DNA of 64,000 nt from assembly GCA_963792415.1 (NCBI GenBank), contig CAWBVY010000006.1, positions 256,001 to 320,000 on the forward strand. Direction: 5' to 3'. This stretch comes from Candidatus Deferrimicrobiaceae bacterium. Lineage in GTDB: Bacteria; Desulfobacterota; Deferrimicrobia; Deferrimicrobiales; Deferrimicrobiaceae. The translations under genes were made by a program, and so were the position numbers. How positions within the stretch are numbered: position 1 is the stretch's first letter; each line of letters opens with the position of its first letter. Shown piece after piece: positions 25,680 to 34,242 of the stretch. The notes below the pieces were generated by a model. The model worked only from the letters and a program-made list of their open reading frames with translations. It did not search any database and had not been told where the DNA came from.

Positions 25680-26360
25680 TCACTTCTTCGGGTGCGTTTT
25701 CTCCCATTCCCTCACCATGCGCTGGGCCTCCTTGAGCTTCTCGGGAGTCAATTTTTTTGCTACCTGGGTCTTTGCATCGGAGGCTTGCCTGTATTCCGCA
25801 CCGGAGGCCCTCGATGCCGCCAGACTGAACCAGAAATACGATTGCACGAAGTCTTGCGGGACCCACTCCCCCAAATAGTATGCGAGCCCGAGAATACGAA
25901 GGGCATCGACATCTCCTTGTTCCGCCGCCTTCCGATACCACTTTTCGGCCTCTGCGTAGTTTTGCGGAGCGCCCTGACCGTTGAGGTACATGAATCCGAG
26001 GTTGTATTGCGCAGATGCGGCCCCCTGCTCCGCGGCCTTCCGGTACCACTTGACGGCCTCGGTCAGGTTCTGCGGGACACCCCAACCGTTCTGAAGCAGG
26101 ATTCCAAGGTTGTACTGTGCCCTCGCGTCCCCCTGCTCTGCCGCTTTCCGGTACCATTTGGCCGCCACCGCGTAGTCCTGCTTGACGCCAGAACCGTTTT
26201 CATACATGGAGCCGATGTTGAACTGGGCTTTCGCGTCCCCTGCTTCCGCTTTTTTCCGGAGGGTTTTCATGTCGGCAGACAGTGGGGAGGTTTCCAGAAG
26301 GGTCAACATCAGGACCGCCAGGATAATCCCACGGAAGGGATTTCTTTTGACTCCAGACAT
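25680..26360 (-). CDS. Secreted Sel1-like repeat protein
   Basis: Signal peptide; repeats of AQYNLG...GxGVxQ...WYRKAAEQG. Confidence 0.92.
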   Translation of the reverse strand: MSGVKRNPFRGIILAVLMLTLLETSPLSADMKTLRKKAEAGDAKAQFNIGSMYENGSGVKQDYAVAAKWYRKAAEQGDARAQYNLGILLQNGWGVPQNLTEAVKWYRKAAEQGAASAQYNLGFMYLNGQGAPQNYAEAEKWYRKAAEQGDVDALRILGLAYYLGEWVPQDFVQSYFWFSLAASRASGAEYRQASDAKTQVAKKLTPEKLKEAQRMVREWEKTHPKK

Positions 26361-26547
26361 CGCCCCCTCCGAGTAGCGCTTCCTTTCTTTTACCCCATGG
26401 ACAGAGATCGGGAAAGAGAAAACCCCGGGGCGAGGGTGCTACCGGCAGGGGGAGACCCGCGGACCGGAGCCGCATTGTAATAATGCCGGTTGTGCGGGGT
26501 TTATGCCCGAATCCGTTTTCATTCCATTCCGCGTCACCGTGTTTATC

Positions 26548-27024
26548 TCACTTTTTCTCGTCCCGCCTCTCCTGAGCTTTCAAGACGTGGCACATCTCGG
26601 TGCAGCCCGTCAGGTTCTTCACACCACTGCCCACGTCATTTTTATGGCATTTGAAGCAGGCCTGGTGGTAGGCGTCCTTGAGTCCCCGACGGGCGATGCT
26701 CCCCGGTCGTTCGGACGCCGGGTGACACTCCCCGCAGGACTTCAGCTTGCCGACGTTCAGGTTCTTTTTGAAAACGGAAGGGTCGATCGGATGGCATTCC
26801 GCACAGGCGTTAACCTGAATCGAGCCGTGCTGATGGTGGCAGTCTGCGCATCCGCCCGCCGTGGAAACATGCTCCGAATGGTTGAACCGCACCGGTTCGT
26901 AGATCCTGGACAGGCTCCCCAGAACGAGGTCCTTCGGAACCTTCCCCACAGCGGCCGTTTCGCTTGAGGCCGAGACGCCGATACAGAGGGCAATGGCAAC
27001 CAGTAGGATCGTCGCTTTCTTCAC
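26548..27024 (-). CDS. Periplasmic cytochrome c3-like multiheme protein (5 heme motifs)
   Basis: GTG start after AAGGAG; signal peptide; PVRFNHSEH; CADCHH, CAECH, CGECH, CFKCH, CTEMCH. Confidence 0.88.
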   Translation of the reverse strand: MKKATILLVAIALCIGVSASSETAAVGKVPKDLVLGSLSRIYEPVRFNHSEHVSTAGGCADCHHQHGSIQVNACAECHPIDPSVFKKNLNVGKLKSCGECHPASERPGSIARRGLKDAYHQACFKCHKNDVGSGVKNLTGCTEMCHVLKAQERRDEKK

Positions 27025-27044
27025 GGTTCCGGTCTCCTTCCGCG

Positions 27045-27737
27045 TTATTCTCCGTCCGTCAGCAGGTGCGTCTTCGCCAGTTCGACCCATTCGGCGCCGC
27101 CCAGTACCCGCGCGATCCCCTCCACCGGGAGACCGCCGTCCTGGAGGACCGGGCCGATGGTTTCGCCGTGGAGCGGATGGAGCTTGTCGAGCGCGTTTTC
27201 CATCCAGGCCCTGGCCAGCTTCCCCGAGAGAAGGTTCCGGGTGTTCGACGCGACCTTGGACGATTTCACCTTCAACAGCCACCCCTTGCCGTACGGATCC
27301 TGGCGCAGGATCTCGGGGGACCGGAGAACCTCGTCGTTCACCTCGACCACCTCGCCGGCGACCGGCGACAGCATCGGGATCCGGTCGGAATCGACCACGA
27401 GGCTCCACCCCTTCTCCCCCTGCGCCAGCCGGGACCCCACGGCGGGCAGCTCGACGGCGTCCACCTTCCCGACGAGCTTCCGGGCGAAGTCGTCCAGCCC
27501 GACGACGCCGATGGAGCCCGGCTCCGGCCGGAGCCAGCCGTGCCCCTGGTGGTAGAAGAGCCCCTCGGGGATCCGGAACCGGGTCACGCTCTCCGGGGCG
27601 ATCCTCGCGCCCGCCGGCGCCTCGCGCGGCTGGTACATGTAGCGGCAGAAGAGCACGAAGACCGCGAGGAACGAGATGACGATCAGGTACTCGATCCCCT
27701 TCGTGGCGTAGATGTCTATGAAGCTGATGCCTTCCAT
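27045..27737 (-). CDS. Membrane-anchored glycine cleavage H-like protein lacking the lipoyl-Lys
   Basis: N-terminal TM; HQGHGW, VGLDDFA, SPVAGEVVEVN, DPYGKGWL; the ESVK loop is replaced by VDSD. Confidence 0.85.
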   Translation of the reverse strand: MEGISFIDIYATKGIEYLIVISFLAVFVLFCRYMYQPREAPAGARIAPESVTRFRIPEGLFYHQGHGWLRPEPGSIGVVGLDDFARKLVGKVDAVELPAVGSRLAQGEKGWSLVVDSDRIPMLSPVAGEVVEVNDEVLRSPEILRQDPYGKGWLLKVKSSKVASNTRNLLSGKLARAWMENALDKLHPLHGETIGPVLQDGGLPVEGIARVLGGAEWVELAKTHLLTDGE

Positions 27738-27810
27738 GTTCCCACCTCCGCGTCTTCCCGATATATTTCCTCTACGACCTCATGCGAGATGCCGACCACG
27801 GACATCCGCG

Positions 27811-28485
27811 TCAGCGGAAATACTTCCGGATCGCGATCTGGAGAATCTCTCCGTCCATGCTCTCCATGATTCCCTCGACGTGAATCCCTCCATCCTGCAG
27901 GGTGGCCCCCACTTCCACGGGCACCGCCCGGTGCAGGGAGAGGAACTCGGTGAAGCTCTTCGCCTCCCTTTCCAGCCACGCCGCGGCCTCCGCGCCGATC
28001 CGGAGCTTCTTCAGGTCCCGGGAGAGGTTGGACGGCCGGAGCAGGAACGCCCACCCCTTCCCGTACGGCTCCTTCCGCGCCTCCGCCGGGTCGGCGTTGA
28101 TCCCCTCGTTCACCGCGCAGACGACGCCGTCGACGGGGGAGACGAACTCGATCCGTTTCCCCGACTGGAGGGCGGCGAACGCCGGCTCCCCCTGGCGCAG
28201 CGTCGCCCCGTCCGGGGGAAGCTCGAACCGGTCGACCTTCCCCAGGATCCCCTGCGCGAAGCCGTCCAGCCCCACCTGCACCGCGCCCGAGGCATCGAGC
28301 CTCGCCCAGGTGTGGCCGCTGTGGACGAACAGGCCGCCGGGCAGTTCCTGCGCCGTCAGGGAAGGGAGCAGCGCGGCCGGCTCACGGACGGCAAGGGCTT
28401 CCGCCGCCGCCTTCTCCCTCCGCTTGAGGGCCAGGTCCACCGCGATACATCCGAGAACCGTGAGTACGACGAGAAGGACTACCAT
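27811..28485 (-). CDS. Membrane-anchored glycine cleavage H-like protein
   Basis: N-terminal TM; HSGHTW, VGLDGFA, SPVDG, EPYGKGW, LQDGG. Confidence 0.85.
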   Translation of the reverse strand: MVVLLVVLTVLGCIAVDLALKRREKAAAEALAVREPAALLPSLTAQELPGGLFVHSGHTWARLDASGAVQVGLDGFAQGILGKVDRFELPPDGATLRQGEPAFAALQSGKRIEFVSPVDGVVCAVNEGINADPAEARKEPYGKGWAFLLRPSNLSRDLKKLRIGAEAAAWLEREAKSFTEFLSLHRAVPVEVGATLQDGGIHVEGIMESMDGEILQIAIRKYFR

Positions 28486-28501
28486 GGCCCACCTCCTGCT
28501 C

Positions 28502-29212
28502 TTACCCCAGAAATTGGCTGACGATCTTTCCCCATTGCGCGTCGTTCAACCGGCCGCTGATGTCCGTGAGCGCCTCCCCGCCGTCCGTCGCCGTCATCCC
28601 CAGGTCGGAAGAGAAGACCCGCTGCAGCCGTTCGACCTCGCTCTCGTACCACTTCCGGGCGACCGTCTCGTGGTACAGCCCCTTCACCGCGTCCCCTTTG
28701 AGCTGCAGGGAGAAGATCCACCCTTCGCCGTACGGATCGTCGTTGAGCAGGGAGGGATCCGCGGCCACCTTCGGGTTCACCGCCTTGACGACCCCGTTGG
28801 CGGGCGAAACCAGGTGGGCGGTCCGAGGACCGGAGTGGAGGAGGAAGCAGACGTGGTTCTCCTTCACCGCCACGCCGACCGCGGGCACCGACGCACGGTC
28901 GACCCTGCCGACCAGCCGGGCGGAAAAGTCGTCGATCCCCACCCGGGCCTCGCCCTCTTCCCCGTCGTGCGGGGCGACCCACAGGTGCTTGGGGTGGTAG
29001 TAGTACCCCGACTTCAGGTGAAATCCCCGGACATTCTCCATCCCCTTGCCGGCGCCGGCCACCTCGTTGTACAGGGAGCATTCCTCGAAGTGGCAGGTGG
29101 TGCAGAGGCTCTCCGAGGTGTACAGCCGGTCCACCGGGATCATCTTCGACGGGAACGCCTTGCAGAACGTCACGGTTTTCGTCTCCAGAAAAGGGCATCT
29201 CGTCTCTTTCAT
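28502..29212 (-). CDS. Glycine cleavage H-like protein with a Cys-rich N-terminal domain, no lipoyl-Lys
   Basis: CPFL...FC...LCTTCHFEEC; HPKHLW, GIDDFS, SPANG, DPYGEGW, TDGG. Confidence 0.85.
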   Translation of the reverse strand: MKETRCPFLETKTVTFCKAFPSKMIPVDRLYTSESLCTTCHFEECSLYNEVAGAGKGMENVRGFHLKSGYYYHPKHLWVAPHDGEEGEARVGIDDFSARLVGRVDRASVPAVGVAVKENHVCFLLHSGPRTAHLVSPANGVVKAVNPKVAADPSLLNDDPYGEGWIFSLQLKGDAVKGLYHETVARKWYESEVERLQRVFSSDLGMTATDGGEALTDISGRLNDAQWGKIVSQFLG

Positions 29213-29270
29213 CTGCGCACCCCTTTTCCTTTCGGTGGTCCGGTTCACCCGCTCGACTCCCGGGAACGTT

Positions 29271-29351
29271 TCATGCGTGGTCCGCCCGCGGTTTCACCAC
29301 CGCGACGACCGCCAGAACGATGTACGCGATTCCGATCACCAGGTACCCCAT
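29271..29351 (-). CDS. Unannotated 26-aa membrane micropeptide MGYLVIGIAYIVLAVVAVVKPRADHA
   Basis: Strong RBS AAGGAGGTGGGAACG-ATG; single TM; first ORF after the sigma54 promoter. Confidence 0.6.
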   Translation of the reverse strand: MGYLVIGIAYIVLAVVAVVKPRADHA

Positions 29352-29398
29352 CGTTCCCACCTCCTTCCGCGGGGACGACCTCCCGCGCCTATGTAGAG

Positions 29399-29414
29399 AG
29401 CATCAGCCATGCCA
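29399..29414 (-). promoter_or_regulatory. sigma54 (-24/-12) promoter for the gcvH-like/cytochrome operon
   Basis: Minus strand TGGCATGGCTGATGCT (GG-N10-GC). Confidence 0.6.
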
Positions 29415-29754
29415 TCCTCGGCCCGAACCCCGCAGAGATCAGTAACCTTCTGTTCGTTAAGGGAAACCAGAACCAAGGACCAACCATTTCCGGGAAGGAT
29501 GAAAAACCGGATTCTGTGTGTATTCTCTACGCTTCCAGGAGGGATTACCTAAGTATTCAATTTCTTTCACATTAAAATGTTGTGAATTTCAACAGTACGT
29601 TGAGATTTTCATCACTCCATTTGATCGCCCTTCTGCCCGGTTGACTCCCTGGTACCCCGGCACCCGCCTCTGCTATGGATTTCCACGCTCCAGTCGGGAA
29701 CCCATACGGTCCCTGTTTGAATTTTCCGCACATCCCCCTTGCAGGGTATTTATA

Positions 29755-29771
29755 TTGTATACAGTATACAA
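29755..29771. promoter_or_regulatory. Perfect palindromic operator TTGTATAC-A-GTATACAA
   Basis: 17-bp inverted repeat in the promoter region of the 4Fe-4S/NrfD operon; near copy at 34226. Confidence 0.7.
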
Positions 29772-29848
29772 AGAACTATAATTCCACTGACGGACAGGAT
29801 TTCCGCCGACAGGGTCGTGTTACGCCGACACCACGGGAGGAAAGAGAG

Positions 29849-30766
29849 ATGACCATCAGCAGACGGAACTTCCTGAAGGCCGCGGGTGCGGCCGGCGGCG
29901 CCCTTCTCGGGGGGGGCGCCGCGTCGGCCCGCGCCGCGCAGGTCCCGCAGACCTCGGCGGGGGGCGTCGAGTTCGACGGGATGCTCATCGACACGACGAA
30001 GTGCATCGGCTGCCGCGCCTGCGAGGAGGCGTGCAACGAGGCGAACCATCTCCCCAAGCCGAAGGTCTCCTTCTCCACCGAGAGCGTGTTCGAGGAGACG
30101 CGGGACACGACCACCGGCGCCTTCACGGTCGTGAACCGGTTCCCAAACGAGAAGAAGCCGCAGGAGCCGATCTTCGTCCGGAAGGAGTGCATGCACTGCA
30201 ACCAGCCGGCGTGCGCCTCCGCGTGCCTGTGCCGGGCGATGGAGAAGACCAGGGAAGCCGCGGTCATCTACCACAAGGACCGGTGCATGGGGTGCCGCTA
30301 CTGCATGATCGCCTGCCCCTTCGACATCCCGAAGTTCGAGTACGACAGCCCCACGCCTTACGTGTGGAAGTGCATCTTCTGCAACGAGCGGCAGATGCGG
30401 GGGGAGCCGCCCGCCTGCTCCGAGGTGTGCCCCACCGGCGCGACCCTCTTCGGGAAGAAGCGCGACCTGCTGGAGATCGCCCGGAGCCGGATCTACACGG
30501 AGCCGGACAAGTACGTCCACAGGATCTACGGGGAGCACGAGGTCGGCGGGACCGGATGGCTCTTCCTGACGGGCGCTCCGCCGGAGAAGCTGGGCCTGCG
30601 GACCAACCTGGGGACGACCCCCTACCCCGAGCTCACCTCCGGGTTCCTGTACGGGGTGCCCCTGGTGTTCGTGCTCTGGCCGTCGCTCCTCATCGGGCTG
30701 AACTACCTCATCAAGGATACCAAGGTCGACGAAACGAAGGAGGCCTCCCATGGCGAACAGGACTGA
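29849..30766 (+). CDS. Tat-exported 4Fe-4S dicluster subunit (HybA/HmcB/NrfC-like)
   Basis: SRRNFLK Tat motif; CIGCRAC, CMHC...CASAC, CMGCRYC...CPF, KCIFC...C...CPTGA; C-terminal TM. Confidence 0.92.
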   Translation: MTISRRNFLKAAGAAGGALLGGGAASARAAQVPQTSAGGVEFDGMLIDTTKCIGCRACEEACNEANHLPKPKVSFSTESVFEETRDTTTGAFTVVNRFPNEKKPQEPIFVRKECMHCNQPACASACLCRAMEKTREAAVIYHKDRCMGCRYCMIACPFDIPKFEYDSPTPYVWKCIFCNERQMRGEPPACSEVCPTGATLFGKKRDLLEIARSRIYTEPDKYVHRIYGEHEVGGTGWLFLTGAPPEKLGLRTNLGTTPYPELTSGFLYGVPLVFVLWPSLLIGLNYLIKDTKVDETKEASHGEQD

Positions 30767-32045
30767 CGCGGCGCCCGCGAGCGCCGAAGGCACCGTGACC
30801 TTCCGGGAGGTGGCTCGGGAAACGATCCGGTTCGTCCTGAGCGAATTCAAACCGAAAGGGAAGATGCTGACGCCGTTCAACGTCATCACCGGGGCGATCA
30901 TCCTCTCCGGCCTCGTGATGATCGCCATCCGGTTCGCCTACGGCCTGGGCGCCGTCTCCAACCTCTCCCAGAACTACCCGTGGGGGATCTGGATCGGCTT
31001 CGACGTGGTCACCGGCGTGGCCTTCGCCGGAGGCGCCTACGTCCTGACCTTCGTCGTCCACATCCTGAAGGTGAAGAAGTACGAGCCGATCGTCCGCGTG
31101 ACCGTCCTCAACGGATTCCTCGCCTACGTCTTCTACGCCGGCGCGCTCCTGCTCGACCTGGGGCGCCCCTGGAACGTCATCAACCCCATCATCGGGAACT
31201 CCTTCGGGTTGAGCTCCGTCCTCTTCCTGGTCGCCTGGCACTTCCTCCTCTACATGATCTGCGAGTTCCTGGAGTTCTCCCCGGTCGTCGCGCAGTGGCT
31301 GAACTGGCCGAGGGCGCGCAGGATCCTGGAAGGGCTCACCACCGGCGCCGTCATCTTCGGGATCACCCTCTCGACGCTCCACCAGTCGGGCCTGGGGGCG
31401 CTCTTCCTCCTGGCCCCCTCGAAGATCCACCCGTTGTGGTACTCGGGGAACATCCCGGTGATGTTCTTCGTCTCCAGCGTCTTCGCGGGCCTTTCCATGG
31501 TCATGATCGAGAGCTTCTTCACGCAGAAGGCCTTCAAGGACCGGATCGGGCACGAGCTCCACGCGGCCCACGACAGCATCCTCCTCGGGCTGGGGAAGGG
31601 AGCCGTCGGCGCCCTCTTCGCCTACATCTTCCTCAAGCTCGTCGACTTCGTGCACTACAAGCAGTGGGTCTACCTCGACACCCCGATGGGGTACTGGTAC
31701 CTGTTCGAGATCGTCGGGTTCGTCCTCCTGCCGACCGCCCTCTTCCTCCAGGCGATCCGGCAGCGCAACCCGAAGCTCGTCCAGTTCACCGCGTTCCTCA
31801 CGGCGATCGGGGTGATCCTGAACCGGCTCAACGTCTCCGTCATCGCGTTCAAGTGGTACGAGGCCGTCCGGTACTACCCCTCCTTCATGGAGATCTGGGT
31901 GACGCTGGCGATCATCAGCATGGAGCTCTGGGTCTTCCGGTGGGTGATCAACCGGATGCCCGTGTTCGGAGAGGCGCATGAGGTGGTGGAGGAAAAAACC
32001 GCGGAAGACCTGGAAACGGTCACATGGAAGGCACCCCTTTCATAG
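30750..32045 (+). CDS. NrfD/PsrC-family membrane quinol-interacting subunit (HybB/HmcC-like)
   Basis: YPWGIWIGFD, DLGRPW, LSTLHQSGLG, LNRLNV; about 10 TM. Confidence 0.92.
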   Translation: MANRTDAAPASAEGTVTFREVARETIRFVLSEFKPKGKMLTPFNVITGAIILSGLVMIAIRFAYGLGAVSNLSQNYPWGIWIGFDVVTGVAFAGGAYVLTFVVHILKVKKYEPIVRVTVLNGFLAYVFYAGALLLDLGRPWNVINPIIGNSFGLSSVLFLVAWHFLLYMICEFLEFSPVVAQWLNWPRARRILEGLTTGAVIFGITLSTLHQSGLGALFLLAPSKIHPLWYSGNIPVMFFVSSVFAGLSMVMIESFFTQKAFKDRIGHELHAAHDSILLGLGKGAVGALFAYIFLKLVDFVHYKQWVYLDTPMGYWYLFEIVGFVLLPTALFLQAIRQRNPKLVQFTAFLTAIGVILNRLNVSVIAFKWYEAVRYYPSFMEIWVTLAIISMELWVFRWVINRMPVFGEAHEVVEEKTAEDLETVTWKAPLS

Positions 32046-32221
32046 GCATCCACGCGGGGGAGAAGGACATGGTGCGGCAGTTCGGTGTGGACACCGGCTT
32101 TGGCTGGGTATCGGAACCTCGTTCCTCGAAGAAAACTTGGAGGGACAACCCTCGAGGTGCGCATACGAAACCTCCAGGTTCCGAAAGAAGACGCCCACCG
32201 GGTTGTTGTGCCTCTGCGTGA
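32024..32221 (+). pseudogene. Degenerate remnant of a GcvH-like gene (paralog of the 27045-27737 start)
   Basis: MEGTPFIGIHA vs MEGISFIDIYA; GFGWVSEP vs GHGWLRPEP; TM and body lost. Confidence 0.6.
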
Positions 32222-32351
32222 ATCTTTTTATTCGCCGGTTCGAAGCTGCCACTGACCTGCTCCCCTGCCTGTCGCACCCTCGCCCTGAATTTTCTCTTCC
32301 TCGATCTCCGACAATGGGGTAAATAAAGGAATCACTACTCAGAGGCAGACG

Positions 32352-32805
32352 ATGTCCGGGGTCCAACGAAATACCTTCCTTGCGGTTCTCCTGGCGACCA
32401 CGATATCGACCCTGTTGGCCTGCTCCACTCTTTCAGCGGACGTCAAGGTCCTCCGCAATCAGGCAAACGCGGGAGACGTGGAAGCCCAATGCCAGCTCGG
32501 GGTCATGTATGCCAACGGCGAGGGTGTCCCACAGGATTATCAGGTGGTATCGGAAGGCCGCAGAGCAAGGATACGCGGCTGCCCAGTACAACCTCGGCTT
32601 GATGTATTCAAACGGTTCGGGCGTCCCGAAGGATTTCGTGCAATCGTATTTCTGGCTCAGCCTGGCTTCCTCAAGAACGTCAGGTGATGCAAACAAACGT
32701 GCCTCCGAGGCAAGAGACCTGGCCGGAAACAAGTTGCCCCCCGATAAGCTCCTGGAAGCCCAGCGCATGATAACGGCATGGGAGAAATTGCACCTGCCGA
32801 CGTGA
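32352..32805 (+). pseudogene. Frameshifted Sel1-repeat gene, paralog of 25680-26360
   Basis: Frame switch near 32540 (GVPQDY | RWYRKAAEQG); both halves match the intact paralog (VQSYFWLSLA, EAQRM). Confidence 0.8.
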
Positions 32806-34205: not shown

Positions 34206-34242
34206 TTGCATTTCGCCGCCGTTTATTGTATACAGTATGCAG
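34206..34242 (+). promoter_or_regulatory. sigma70-like promoter overlapped by the TTGTATACAGTATGCA operator
   Basis: TTGCAT-N17-TATACA; operator nearly identical to 29755-29771. Confidence 0.55.

Follow-up and report, generated by a model that had tools for sequence, protein, structure and literature searches.

What does a protein with the fold of the glycine cleavage H-protein do in a respiratory gene cluster, once it has lost the lysine that would make it a lipoyl carrier? The question is raised by a locus in DNA of a Candidatus Deferrimicrobiaceae bacterium (GCA_963792415.1, contig CAWBVY010000006.1), of which we analyzed a stretch of 64,000 nucleotides, referred to here as the window. Three genes for such proteins (GcvH-A, GcvH-B, and GcvH-C) lie there next to genes encoding a multihaem cytochrome, an iron-sulfur (Fe-S) protein, and an NrfD-family membrane subunit. 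An initial annotation, made from the sequence alone, had described this divergent gene set and proposed that the H-protein fold was repurposed as cytoplasmic adaptor or sensor subunits of a membrane electron-transfer complex. Our analysis confirms the observation and in part supports that interpretation. The three proteins retain the fold without the lysine and belong to a wider family, and we propose with moderate confidence that, as adaptors or regulators that bind other proteins, they couple a redox module to a signalling cassette.

Every gene listed in the initial annotation is present, and the features of the locus are as follows.

26548..27024, minus strand: c3/c7-type multihaem cytochrome c, with a signal peptide or anchor and weak matches to TmcA, HmcA, and c7 profiles
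27045..27737, minus strand: GcvH-C, with a single transmembrane (TM) anchor predicted to be N-out, a Lys-less H-protein fold, and a C-terminal DGG extension
27811..28485, minus strand: GcvH-B, with an N-terminal TM anchor, a Lys-less H-protein fold, and the DGG extension
28502..29212, minus strand: GcvH-A, soluble, with four invariant Cys at the N-terminus, a Lys-less H-protein fold, and the DGG extension
29271..29351, minus strand: hydrophobic micropeptide of 26 amino acids (MGYLVIGIAYIVLAVVAVVKPRADHA) with a strong ribosome site
29399..29414, minus strand: sigma-54-type motif TGGCATGGCTGATGCT (TGGCAT-N5-ATGCT)
29755..29782, plus strand: 17-bp palindrome TTGTATACAGTATACAA followed by TATAAT, 5' of hmcB
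29849..30766, plus strand: HmcB/HybA-like protein with a twin-arginine translocation (Tat) signal, four 4-Cys cluster motifs, and a C-terminal TM helix
30750..32045, plus strand: HmcC/HybB-like membrane subunit of the NrfD family (PF03916 match)
31953..32055, unstranded: duplicated junction of the hmcC 3' end and the gcvH-C 5' end, an inverted copy of 27706-27808

On the minus strand, the order of transcription is the sigma-54-type motif, the micropeptide, GcvH-A, GcvH-B, GcvH-C, and the cytochrome, whose gene starts 20 nucleotides (nt) beyond the end of the GcvH-C gene. On the plus strand, hmcB and hmcC overlap by 17 nt, and Pfam and NCBIfam matches bear out both the Tat 4Fe-4S protein and the NrfD/HmcC subunit previously assigned there.

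The H-protein fold is kept and the lipoyl-lysine is lost

All three proteins match the Pfam GCV_H model, with E-values of 2e-21 for GcvH-C, 1e-18 for GcvH-B, and 7e-20 for GcvH-A, and they score 79, 59, and 59 bits against the GcvH equivalog TIGR00527, for which the cut-off is 115.85. An AlphaFold2 model of GcvH-C (pLDDT 79) was compared by Foldseek with solved GcvH structures (1onl, 3ab9, and others), giving a TM-score of 0.91, a root-mean-square deviation of 1.5-1.7 A, and an E-value of 5e-12 at 30-35% identity. We also tried TIGR03077 ("not_gcvH") and NF045810 ("GcvH_rel_desulf") as identities for these proteins and rejected both, as the scores fall far under the cut-offs.

The genome encodes a Lys-bearing short GcvH of its own (contig C4, L001), and we used an alignment to it to define the lipoyl column. 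That position holds Ser in GcvH-C, Gly in GcvH-B, and Pro in GcvH-A, just as first read from the sequence, and the Lys that had been spotted slightly off in the middle paralogue does indeed lie one residue past the column. The loss extends beyond the window, since the column is Lys-free in all 34 aligned orthologues; among 63 scored family representatives, it holds Lys in 2 and Gly in 28. The initial annotation had also seen no gcvP/T or lipoate ligase gene in the window. Scanning all but 72 kb of the genome, which is 100% complete, we obtained no match to the T-protein (GCV_T), although gcvP was not searched for, and the sole LplA/LipB-type gene lies on contig C1, not near the locus. As judged from their sequences, the window proteins cannot be lipoyl carriers. 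Given that they have no lipoyl site and that the genome has no T-protein, it is wrong to assign them to glycine cleavage when metabolism is reconstructed.

Two further H-proteins deserve mention. The genome under study encodes a short one (L002; C10:53453-53806) with Thr at the lipoyl column and without the DGG extension, adjoining a folD-like gene; it is a fourth kind of H-protein here. In addition, one extension-bearing family member (L138; G141:C31, 10024-10803 in its locus) has Lys at the canonical lipoyl position (QEKH), and its neighbors are a major facilitator superfamily transporter and a kinase/regulator/M54 peptidase set.

A shared C-terminal extension defines a large family

The C-terminal extension previously noted in all three paralogues proved to be real. 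It comprises ~60 amino acids with the pattern A..W..E...LG....DGG......W....fL, and in the model two helices are connected by a loop of low confidence in which the invariant DGG lies. We scored a profile of the extension alone against 1.84 billion representatives, clustering at 50% identity, and recovered 993 clusters with E<=1e-3, or 100 when the threshold was set to 1e-10. The full-length matches are nearly all 220-250 amino acids long with the extension at the C-terminus, and GCV_H precedes it in all 20 matches that were scanned. GcvH-A, GcvH-B, and GcvH-C share this architecture, i.e., a GCV_H domain and then the W...LG...DGG...W extension. N-termini vary across the family. Some members have a TM anchor or a polytopic membrane segment, others a single or double 4-Cys module, and others an anchor preceded by a periplasmic cytochrome; in P0154 and P0251, a response-regulator receiver domain is fused N-terminally.

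In a tree built by maximum likelihood, the 31 proteins with the extension form a group apart from the 17 ordinary GcvH; the support for this split, 98/96, is partly circular because the extension columns were in the alignment. The same tree divides the anchored forms (98/94) from the soluble Cys-rich forms (95/91) as two groups. No NCBIfam model claims the family proteins and Pfam has no model for the extension, an Atlas look-up returned only unnamed GCV_H clusters, and the public label is "glycine cleavage system H (lipoate-binding) protein." Our literature search, which left most subscription journals outside its reach, found no description of Lys-less, extension-bearing H-proteins tied to NrfD/HybA, membrane cytochromes, heterodisulfide reductase (Hdr), or sigma-54. 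On sequence criteria, the family is very large, unnamed, and mis-annotated.

With respect to the N-termini, GcvH-B and GcvH-C each carry one hydrophobic helix, in agreement with the TM anchors of the initial annotation. A Lys/Arg cluster follows that helix in 26 of 26 GcvH-B/GcvH-C-type sequences checked, and this clustering predicts an N-out, C-in orientation with the H-fold domain in the cytoplasm. A natural fusion (P0185), in which a signal peptide and four CXXCH motifs precede the conserved C-type anchor (ATKGVEYL...) and the H-fold, agrees with the N-out topology. GcvH-A has invariant Cys at C6, C17, C37, and C45, so that its N-terminus is Cys-rich as had been described; as for the suggested metal binding, when the Cys-rich N-termini were scanned with Pfam at permissive settings, zinc-finger matches at chance level were all that appeared, and the AlphaFold2 model of GcvH-A places the 4-Cys module at low confidence with no confident geometry. 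Some soluble members have two tandem 4-Cys modules of the form C-x13-16-C-x5-C-x2-C-x-FD.

H-fold genes travel with redox modules and a signalling cassette

Linkage to NrfD and cytochrome genes in other genomes was one of the points on which the initial annotation had staked its reading, and for HmcB/HmcC-like genes it is conserved across phyla: HmcB and/or HmcC adjoin a close GcvH-C relative in 23 of 26 loci, including those of Gemmatimonadota, Acidobacteriota, and Sulfotelmatobacter. Two of the three exceptions are short contigs and the third is L034. According to Pfam, genes for a histidine kinase with a HAMP domain and for a sigma-54 regulator of the NtrC type flank the GcvH-C-type loci, frequently along with one for an M54 peptidase. 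When genomes were sampled with the extension profile, the family turned up in 51 of 201 from its own phylum, representing 40 of 142 genera, and in 27 of 151 from the phylum of L031, which is labelled Acidobacteriota.

For a broader census, we collected 52 loci from the 50 other positive genomes, taking one region of <=19.5 kb from each (two from two genomes). The neighbors recorded were as follows.

Sigma-54 regulator: 39 of 52 loci
Histidine kinase: 38 of 52 loci
M54 peptidase: 38 of 52 loci
Fe-S protein plus NrfD: 20 of 52 loci
Hdr-like (HdrA-like flavoprotein or CCG protein): 16 of 52 loci
NrfD or Hdr-like: 36 of 52 loci

The idea of an adaptor of an NrfD complex thus keeps its fold, its Lys loss, its predicted cytoplasmic domains, and its gene linkage, but the family is not dedicated to that complex, as NrfD is found in only 20 of the 52 loci. 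Pfam analysis of 12 loci showed that the Hdr-type operons consist of the H-fold gene, HdrC, HdrB, and a giant HdrA/NfnB-like protein, sometimes with methylenetetrahydrofolate reductase, and that some loci have H-fold genes alone. A hand tally placed M54 in 47 of the 51 family-bearing genomes versus 27 of 150 without the family.

The members with tandem 4-Cys modules lead operons of HdrC, HdrB, and the giant HdrA/NfnB-like protein (L129, L134-L137, L147, L152-L156, L164, L170, and L171), and these operons adjoin a PAS kinase, a sigma-54 regulator, and M54. A different setting is seen at L121 (G009:C10:28158-30703), where four family genes lie in tandem and genes for a pyridine-nucleotide disulphide oxidoreductase and a DUF1641 protein come after them; the 19.5-kb region retrieved contains neither kinase nor regulator genes, and neither NrfD nor Hdr genes.

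The window locus is a rearranged second copy

Contig C4 of the same genome carries a second set as a colinear operon, i.e., micropeptide, A, B, hmcB, hmcC, and C, with a 22-nt overlap of hmcC and gcvH-C. The two sets are 99.9% identical over A-B, 99.2% over hmcBC, and 94.6% over C (100% for the GcvH-B product and 95% for the GcvH-C product). The order A-B-hmcB-hmcC-C occurs in 15 loci when the C4 copy is counted. The divergent arrangement described earlier is real but is not the usual form; the colinear operon is, and sequence comparison identifies the window locus as a derived, rearranged second copy.

Traces of that rearrangement can be seen at the break. A 103-nt inverted duplicate of the hmcC-end/C-start junction (27706-27808 and 31953-32055) marks its scar, and a remnant gcvH-C start (MEGTPFIG) lies at 32024, after hmcC. 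The window promoter region can be aligned end to end with its canonical counterparts, sigma-54 motif and upstream repeats included, but it is far more diverged than the coding parts; the window cytochrome and GcvH-C also differ from the canonical copy. From this pattern we infer that the window set is probably an old paralogue in which A-B and hmcBC were recently homogenised by gene conversion.

We also considered whether the divergent arrangement is a mis-assembly of near-identical copies, and rejected this. The C|B junction, which is specific to the window, is spanned by public DNA contigs of two studies, and the intergenic region between the divergent units by one such contig, although the best of them may come from the source sample. 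The A-B-C adjacency recurs in another metagenome-assembled genome (L013, a 1.6-kb contig) and in a same-genus genome (L169).

Two inverted Sel1-repeat genes flank the locus, at 25680-26360 on the minus strand and at 32352-32805 on the plus strand, the right one being frameshifted. Their arms of 191 nt are 73% complementary, and it may be between these two genes that the second copy was inserted or inverted. In six estuary RNA libraries, contigs hold 21-31% of the words sampled from window positions 26500-32300. Contigs from two of the six cover C, B, hmcB, and hmcC at 95-99% identity, with hmcC joined to gcvH-C in the canonical style; these contigs are compatible with expression in nature, without being proof of transcription, and the stretches that they leave uncovered are uninformative.

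Promoters, palindrome, and haem-motif kinases

The sigma-54-type motif is found at the same spacing in 11 of 15 loci, namely at -166 relative to the GTG at 29248, where the long GcvH-A frame starts. A strict version of the pattern occurs 40 times in the 1.72 Mb of census DNA, and 29 of these occurrences, in 28 loci, lie a short distance 5' of a co-oriented H-fold or Fe-S gene. The window holds no regulator gene of the cassette, and the NtrC-type regulator is encoded at the C4 copy. More specifically, the HAMP kinase, this regulator, and an M54 (archaemetzincin-type) peptidase, whose gene is the only M54 gene of the genome, are encoded at C4:~109.0-112.6 kb, and a TRAP transporter and a malonyl-CoA decarboxylase-like gene separate this cassette from the C4 operon.

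Many of the kinases carry haem-binding-type motifs. In the first set of NrfD-type loci, periplasmic CXXCH and CX4CH motifs ~43 residues apart were present in 7 of 7 kinases, and among the census kinases of NrfD-type loci (n = 18), 14 have both motifs, 3 have one, and 1 has none. Kinases of the other loci are of PAS or GAF types, with CXXCH in 0 of 22.

The palindrome TTGTATACAGTATACAA upstream of hmcB is perfect over its 17 bp. Nine sites with <=3 mismatches exist in the genome, where none would be expected by chance in the window: two are in the window (29755-29771 and 34226-34242), one is at C4:109062, one is at C1:179870, and there are five more. The palindrome lies at or just 5' of the start of the C4 haem-motif kinase gene, and directly 5' of a GntR-family regulator gene (C1:179169-179834). 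It resembles the operator of a regulon under a GntR-type repressor that also controls its own gene.

The redox module

In such modules, the Fe-S protein and the cytochrome face the periplasm (Tat signal and signal peptide, respectively), and the NrfD-type subunit binds quinone and has no cofactor for passing electrons to the cytoplasmic side. The window encodes both an NrfD domain (PF03916) and a Tat-exported partner with four cluster motifs. The best NCBIfam matches of this plus-strand pair are HmcB and HmcC, at 353 bits for the HmcB-like protein (equivalog cut-off, 420) and 390 bits for the HmcC-like protein (cut-off, 550). Neither a 16-haem HmcA nor HmcE/F or a hydrogenase is present among the locus genes or the neighbors scanned (window 17-46 kb). 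On the strength of its sequence matches, the module falls within the NrfD/four-cluster group as an unexceptional member, with HmcBC and HybAB as its nearest relatives. The micropeptide is kept in 12 of 15 loci.

The cytochrome gene has an AAGGAG ribosome site, and its product begins with a hydrophobic signal or anchor. The initial annotation had counted five haems in a c3-like protein. We find four CXXCH motifs (CADCH, CAECH, CGECH, and CFKCH) and one CX3CH (CTEMCH), so that four or five haems may be bound; the pentahaem state is plausible and the fifth site is unproven. Compared with its tetrahaem relatives from other loci, the window protein has one extra CXXCH in a loop, and its last motif is CTEMCH where theirs is CTDCH. 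Small tetrahaem cytochromes homologous to it lie 3' of the C-type GcvH gene or of hmcC in 6 of 20 NrfD-type loci. The third-codon-position G+C content of the cytochrome gene is 0.75, versus 0.93 for the neighboring gene.

The accessible portions of two sources propose comparable modules of a cytochrome, an Fe-S protein, and a membrane subunit as quinone:cytochrome c oxidoreductases (PMC9386147; bioRxiv 10.1101/2025.04.14.648717), and those of the first note similar modules in Ca. Deferrimicrobium (PMC9386147).

Proposed function and alternatives

Taking the fold, the Lys loss, the family, the topology signals, the gene linkage, and the promoter motif together, we favor, with confidence that is moderate, the reading of the H-fold proteins as adaptor or regulatory parts between redox module and cassette. 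The multihaem cytochrome, the HmcB-like protein with its four Fe-S clusters, the HmcC/NrfD-like quinone subunit, and the TM peptide would form a periplasm-facing quinone:cytochrome c module. Its operon would be transcribed from the sigma-54 promoter under the control of a putative haem-sensing histidine kinase and the NtrC-type regulator, which are encoded with M54 at C4. In many anaerobes, the family is probably controlled by a sigma-54 two-component switch of this kind. GcvH-B and GcvH-C would be anchored in the membrane through their N-out helices, leaving the H-fold domains on the cytoplasmic side, and GcvH-A is soluble and has a 4-Cys site. The H-fold proteins may then link the redox module (HmcBC here, Hdr-like enzymes elsewhere) to the signalling cassette by one of two routes, either docking on the cytoplasmic face of the redox complex or feeding back on the regulator.

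Several observations weigh against this proposal. The kinase gene of the cassette is split over two frames at C4:~109790, near the start of HAMP, as a result of either a frameshift mutation or a sequencing error. In the window, hmcBC is severed from the sigma-54 promoter and stands behind a sigma-70-like promoter (TATAAT) and a palindromic operator. The census scan applied home-made hidden Markov models to stop-to-stop frames, and some of its regions are cut by contig ends. Moreover, M54 stands alone in 10 of the 27 M54-bearing genomes that lack the family, so the protease link is not exclusive. Model confidence is low for both the DGG loop and the Cys module, so that no chemistry can be read from them. 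Direct contacts of the H-fold proteins with HmcC, with the kinase and regulator, or with M54 are putative, and the tight operon packing with hmcB and hmcC would fit plain structural subunits equally well.

A bolder form of the proposal is that the H-fold plus DGG domain is a new kind of signalling output or adaptor through which a haem- or PAS-sensing kinase pathway acts directly on respiratory and Hdr-type complexes, beyond transcription, with docking set by phosphorylation (for the receiver fusions) or by M54 proteolysis. We regard this as possible but unlikely. If true, electron flow at the quinone level would be throttled post-translationally, by a mechanism widespread among anaerobes.

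Plain structural subunits, which take the place of the cytoplasmic HmcE/F in an HmcBC-type complex and have no signalling role, correspond to the view of the initial annotation. Their genes are interleaved and overlapping within one operon, two of the proteins have TM anchors, and the accompanying micropeptide is conserved and may be comparable to the small subunits of related complexes. We nevertheless consider this explanation unlikely, given that 32 of the 52 census loci have no nearby NrfD gene and 16 have Hdr-like genes instead, that three loci (L130, L131, and L132) hold only H-fold genes behind the sigma-54 motif, that fusions to receiver domains exist, and that an NrfD-type subunit has no cofactor through which electrons could reach the cytoplasmic side.

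The Hdr-type loci bring up another option, in which the H-fold proteins are thiol- or metal-based redox carriers like DsrC or LbpA, serve as substrates of Hdr-like/CCG enzymes, and have Cys modules in place of lipoate. The adjacency of Hdr-like genes in 16 of 52 loci, with the operon order G-HdrC-HdrB-HdrA-like, points in this direction, as do the four invariant Cys of GcvH-A and the tandem modules of the soluble forms; a precedent is the lipoate-binding GcvH-like LbpA, which works with sHdr according to the accessible part of its description (PMC6067878). However, GcvH-B and GcvH-C have no conserved Cys outside the anchor, no CCG protein is encoded in the NrfD-type loci, and no Pfam model matches the Cys modules, which makes a carrier role quite unlikely.

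It is also conceivable, by analogy with the binding of PspF by PspA, that the H-fold proteins, being encoded first in the sigma-54 operon, are anti-activators or protease substrates in a feedback loop, binding the NtrC-type regulator and being cleared by M54, perhaps at the DGG loop. Such a role would suit the position of the sigma-54 motif directly 5' of H-fold or Fe-S genes in 28 loci, the adjacency of M54 in 38 of 52 loci, the location of the genome's only M54 gene in the cassette, and the invariance of DGG within a flexible loop. Considering that the case is one of analogy alone and that M54 also occurs by itself, we judge it very unlikely.

Finally, lipoylation of at least GcvH-B on the Lys one residue past the canonical position is extremely improbable: Lys or Arg occupies that place in 10 of 10 aligned GcvH-B orthologues and Lys is found at -7 in 20 of the 63 family representatives, but the Gemmatimonadota orthologue has Arg there, the canonical column is Gly, the score is far under the GcvH cut-offs, and a one-residue shift of the Lys abolishes lipoylation of lipoyl domains.

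The family travels with Hdr-like enzymes and with modules that probably connect the quinone pool to periplasmic cytochromes in metal-reducing and related anaerobes. Knowing its function would show how such bacteria sense and tune their respiratory chains, and a new use for one of the oldest carrier-protein folds would emerge.

Comparison with known systems

The closest relative in terms of fold is GcvH itself (PF01597, TIGR00527), with which the window proteins share the core motifs H-x-W, SP-x-G, and PY-x-GW. Unlike GcvH, they have no lipoyl-Lys and they carry an additional N-terminal anchor or Cys module and the DGG extension. The genomic setting differs as well, as we found no T-protein gene in the genome, and a separate Lys-bearing GcvH is encoded on C4.

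The redox partners resemble HmcB/HmcC of Desulfovibrio and HybA/HybB of E. coli hydrogenase 2 in combining a Tat-exported four-cluster Fe-S protein that has a C-terminal helix with an NrfD-family subunit, whereas the partner cytochrome of the window is a 4-5-haem protein and not the 16-haem HmcA of the Hmc complex (HmcABCDEF). By composition alone, i.e., a small multihaem cytochrome plus an Fe-S protein and a membrane subunit, the module is also like Cbc4 (CbcSTU) of Geobacter sulfurreducens and the Nhc/Tmc-type modules, as these are presented in the accessible portion of bioRxiv 10.1101/2025.04.14.648717. H-fold partners set the window apart from Cbc4, Nhc, and Tmc, for which the accessible portions of both sources mention none (PMC9386147; bioRxiv 10.1101/2025.04.14.648717).

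LbpA of sHdr sulfur oxidation offers the nearest parallel to the wider family, being a GcvH-like protein encoded with Hdr-like genes, as is the case in 16 of the 52 family loci. Whereas LbpA keeps and needs its lipoyl-Lys, as far as the accessible part of its description goes (PMC6067878), the window family lacks the Lys and has the DGG extension. Nor does the window locus have the dedicated lipoate ligase genes expected near an LbpA gene, the only LplA/LipB-type gene of the genome being the one on contig C1.

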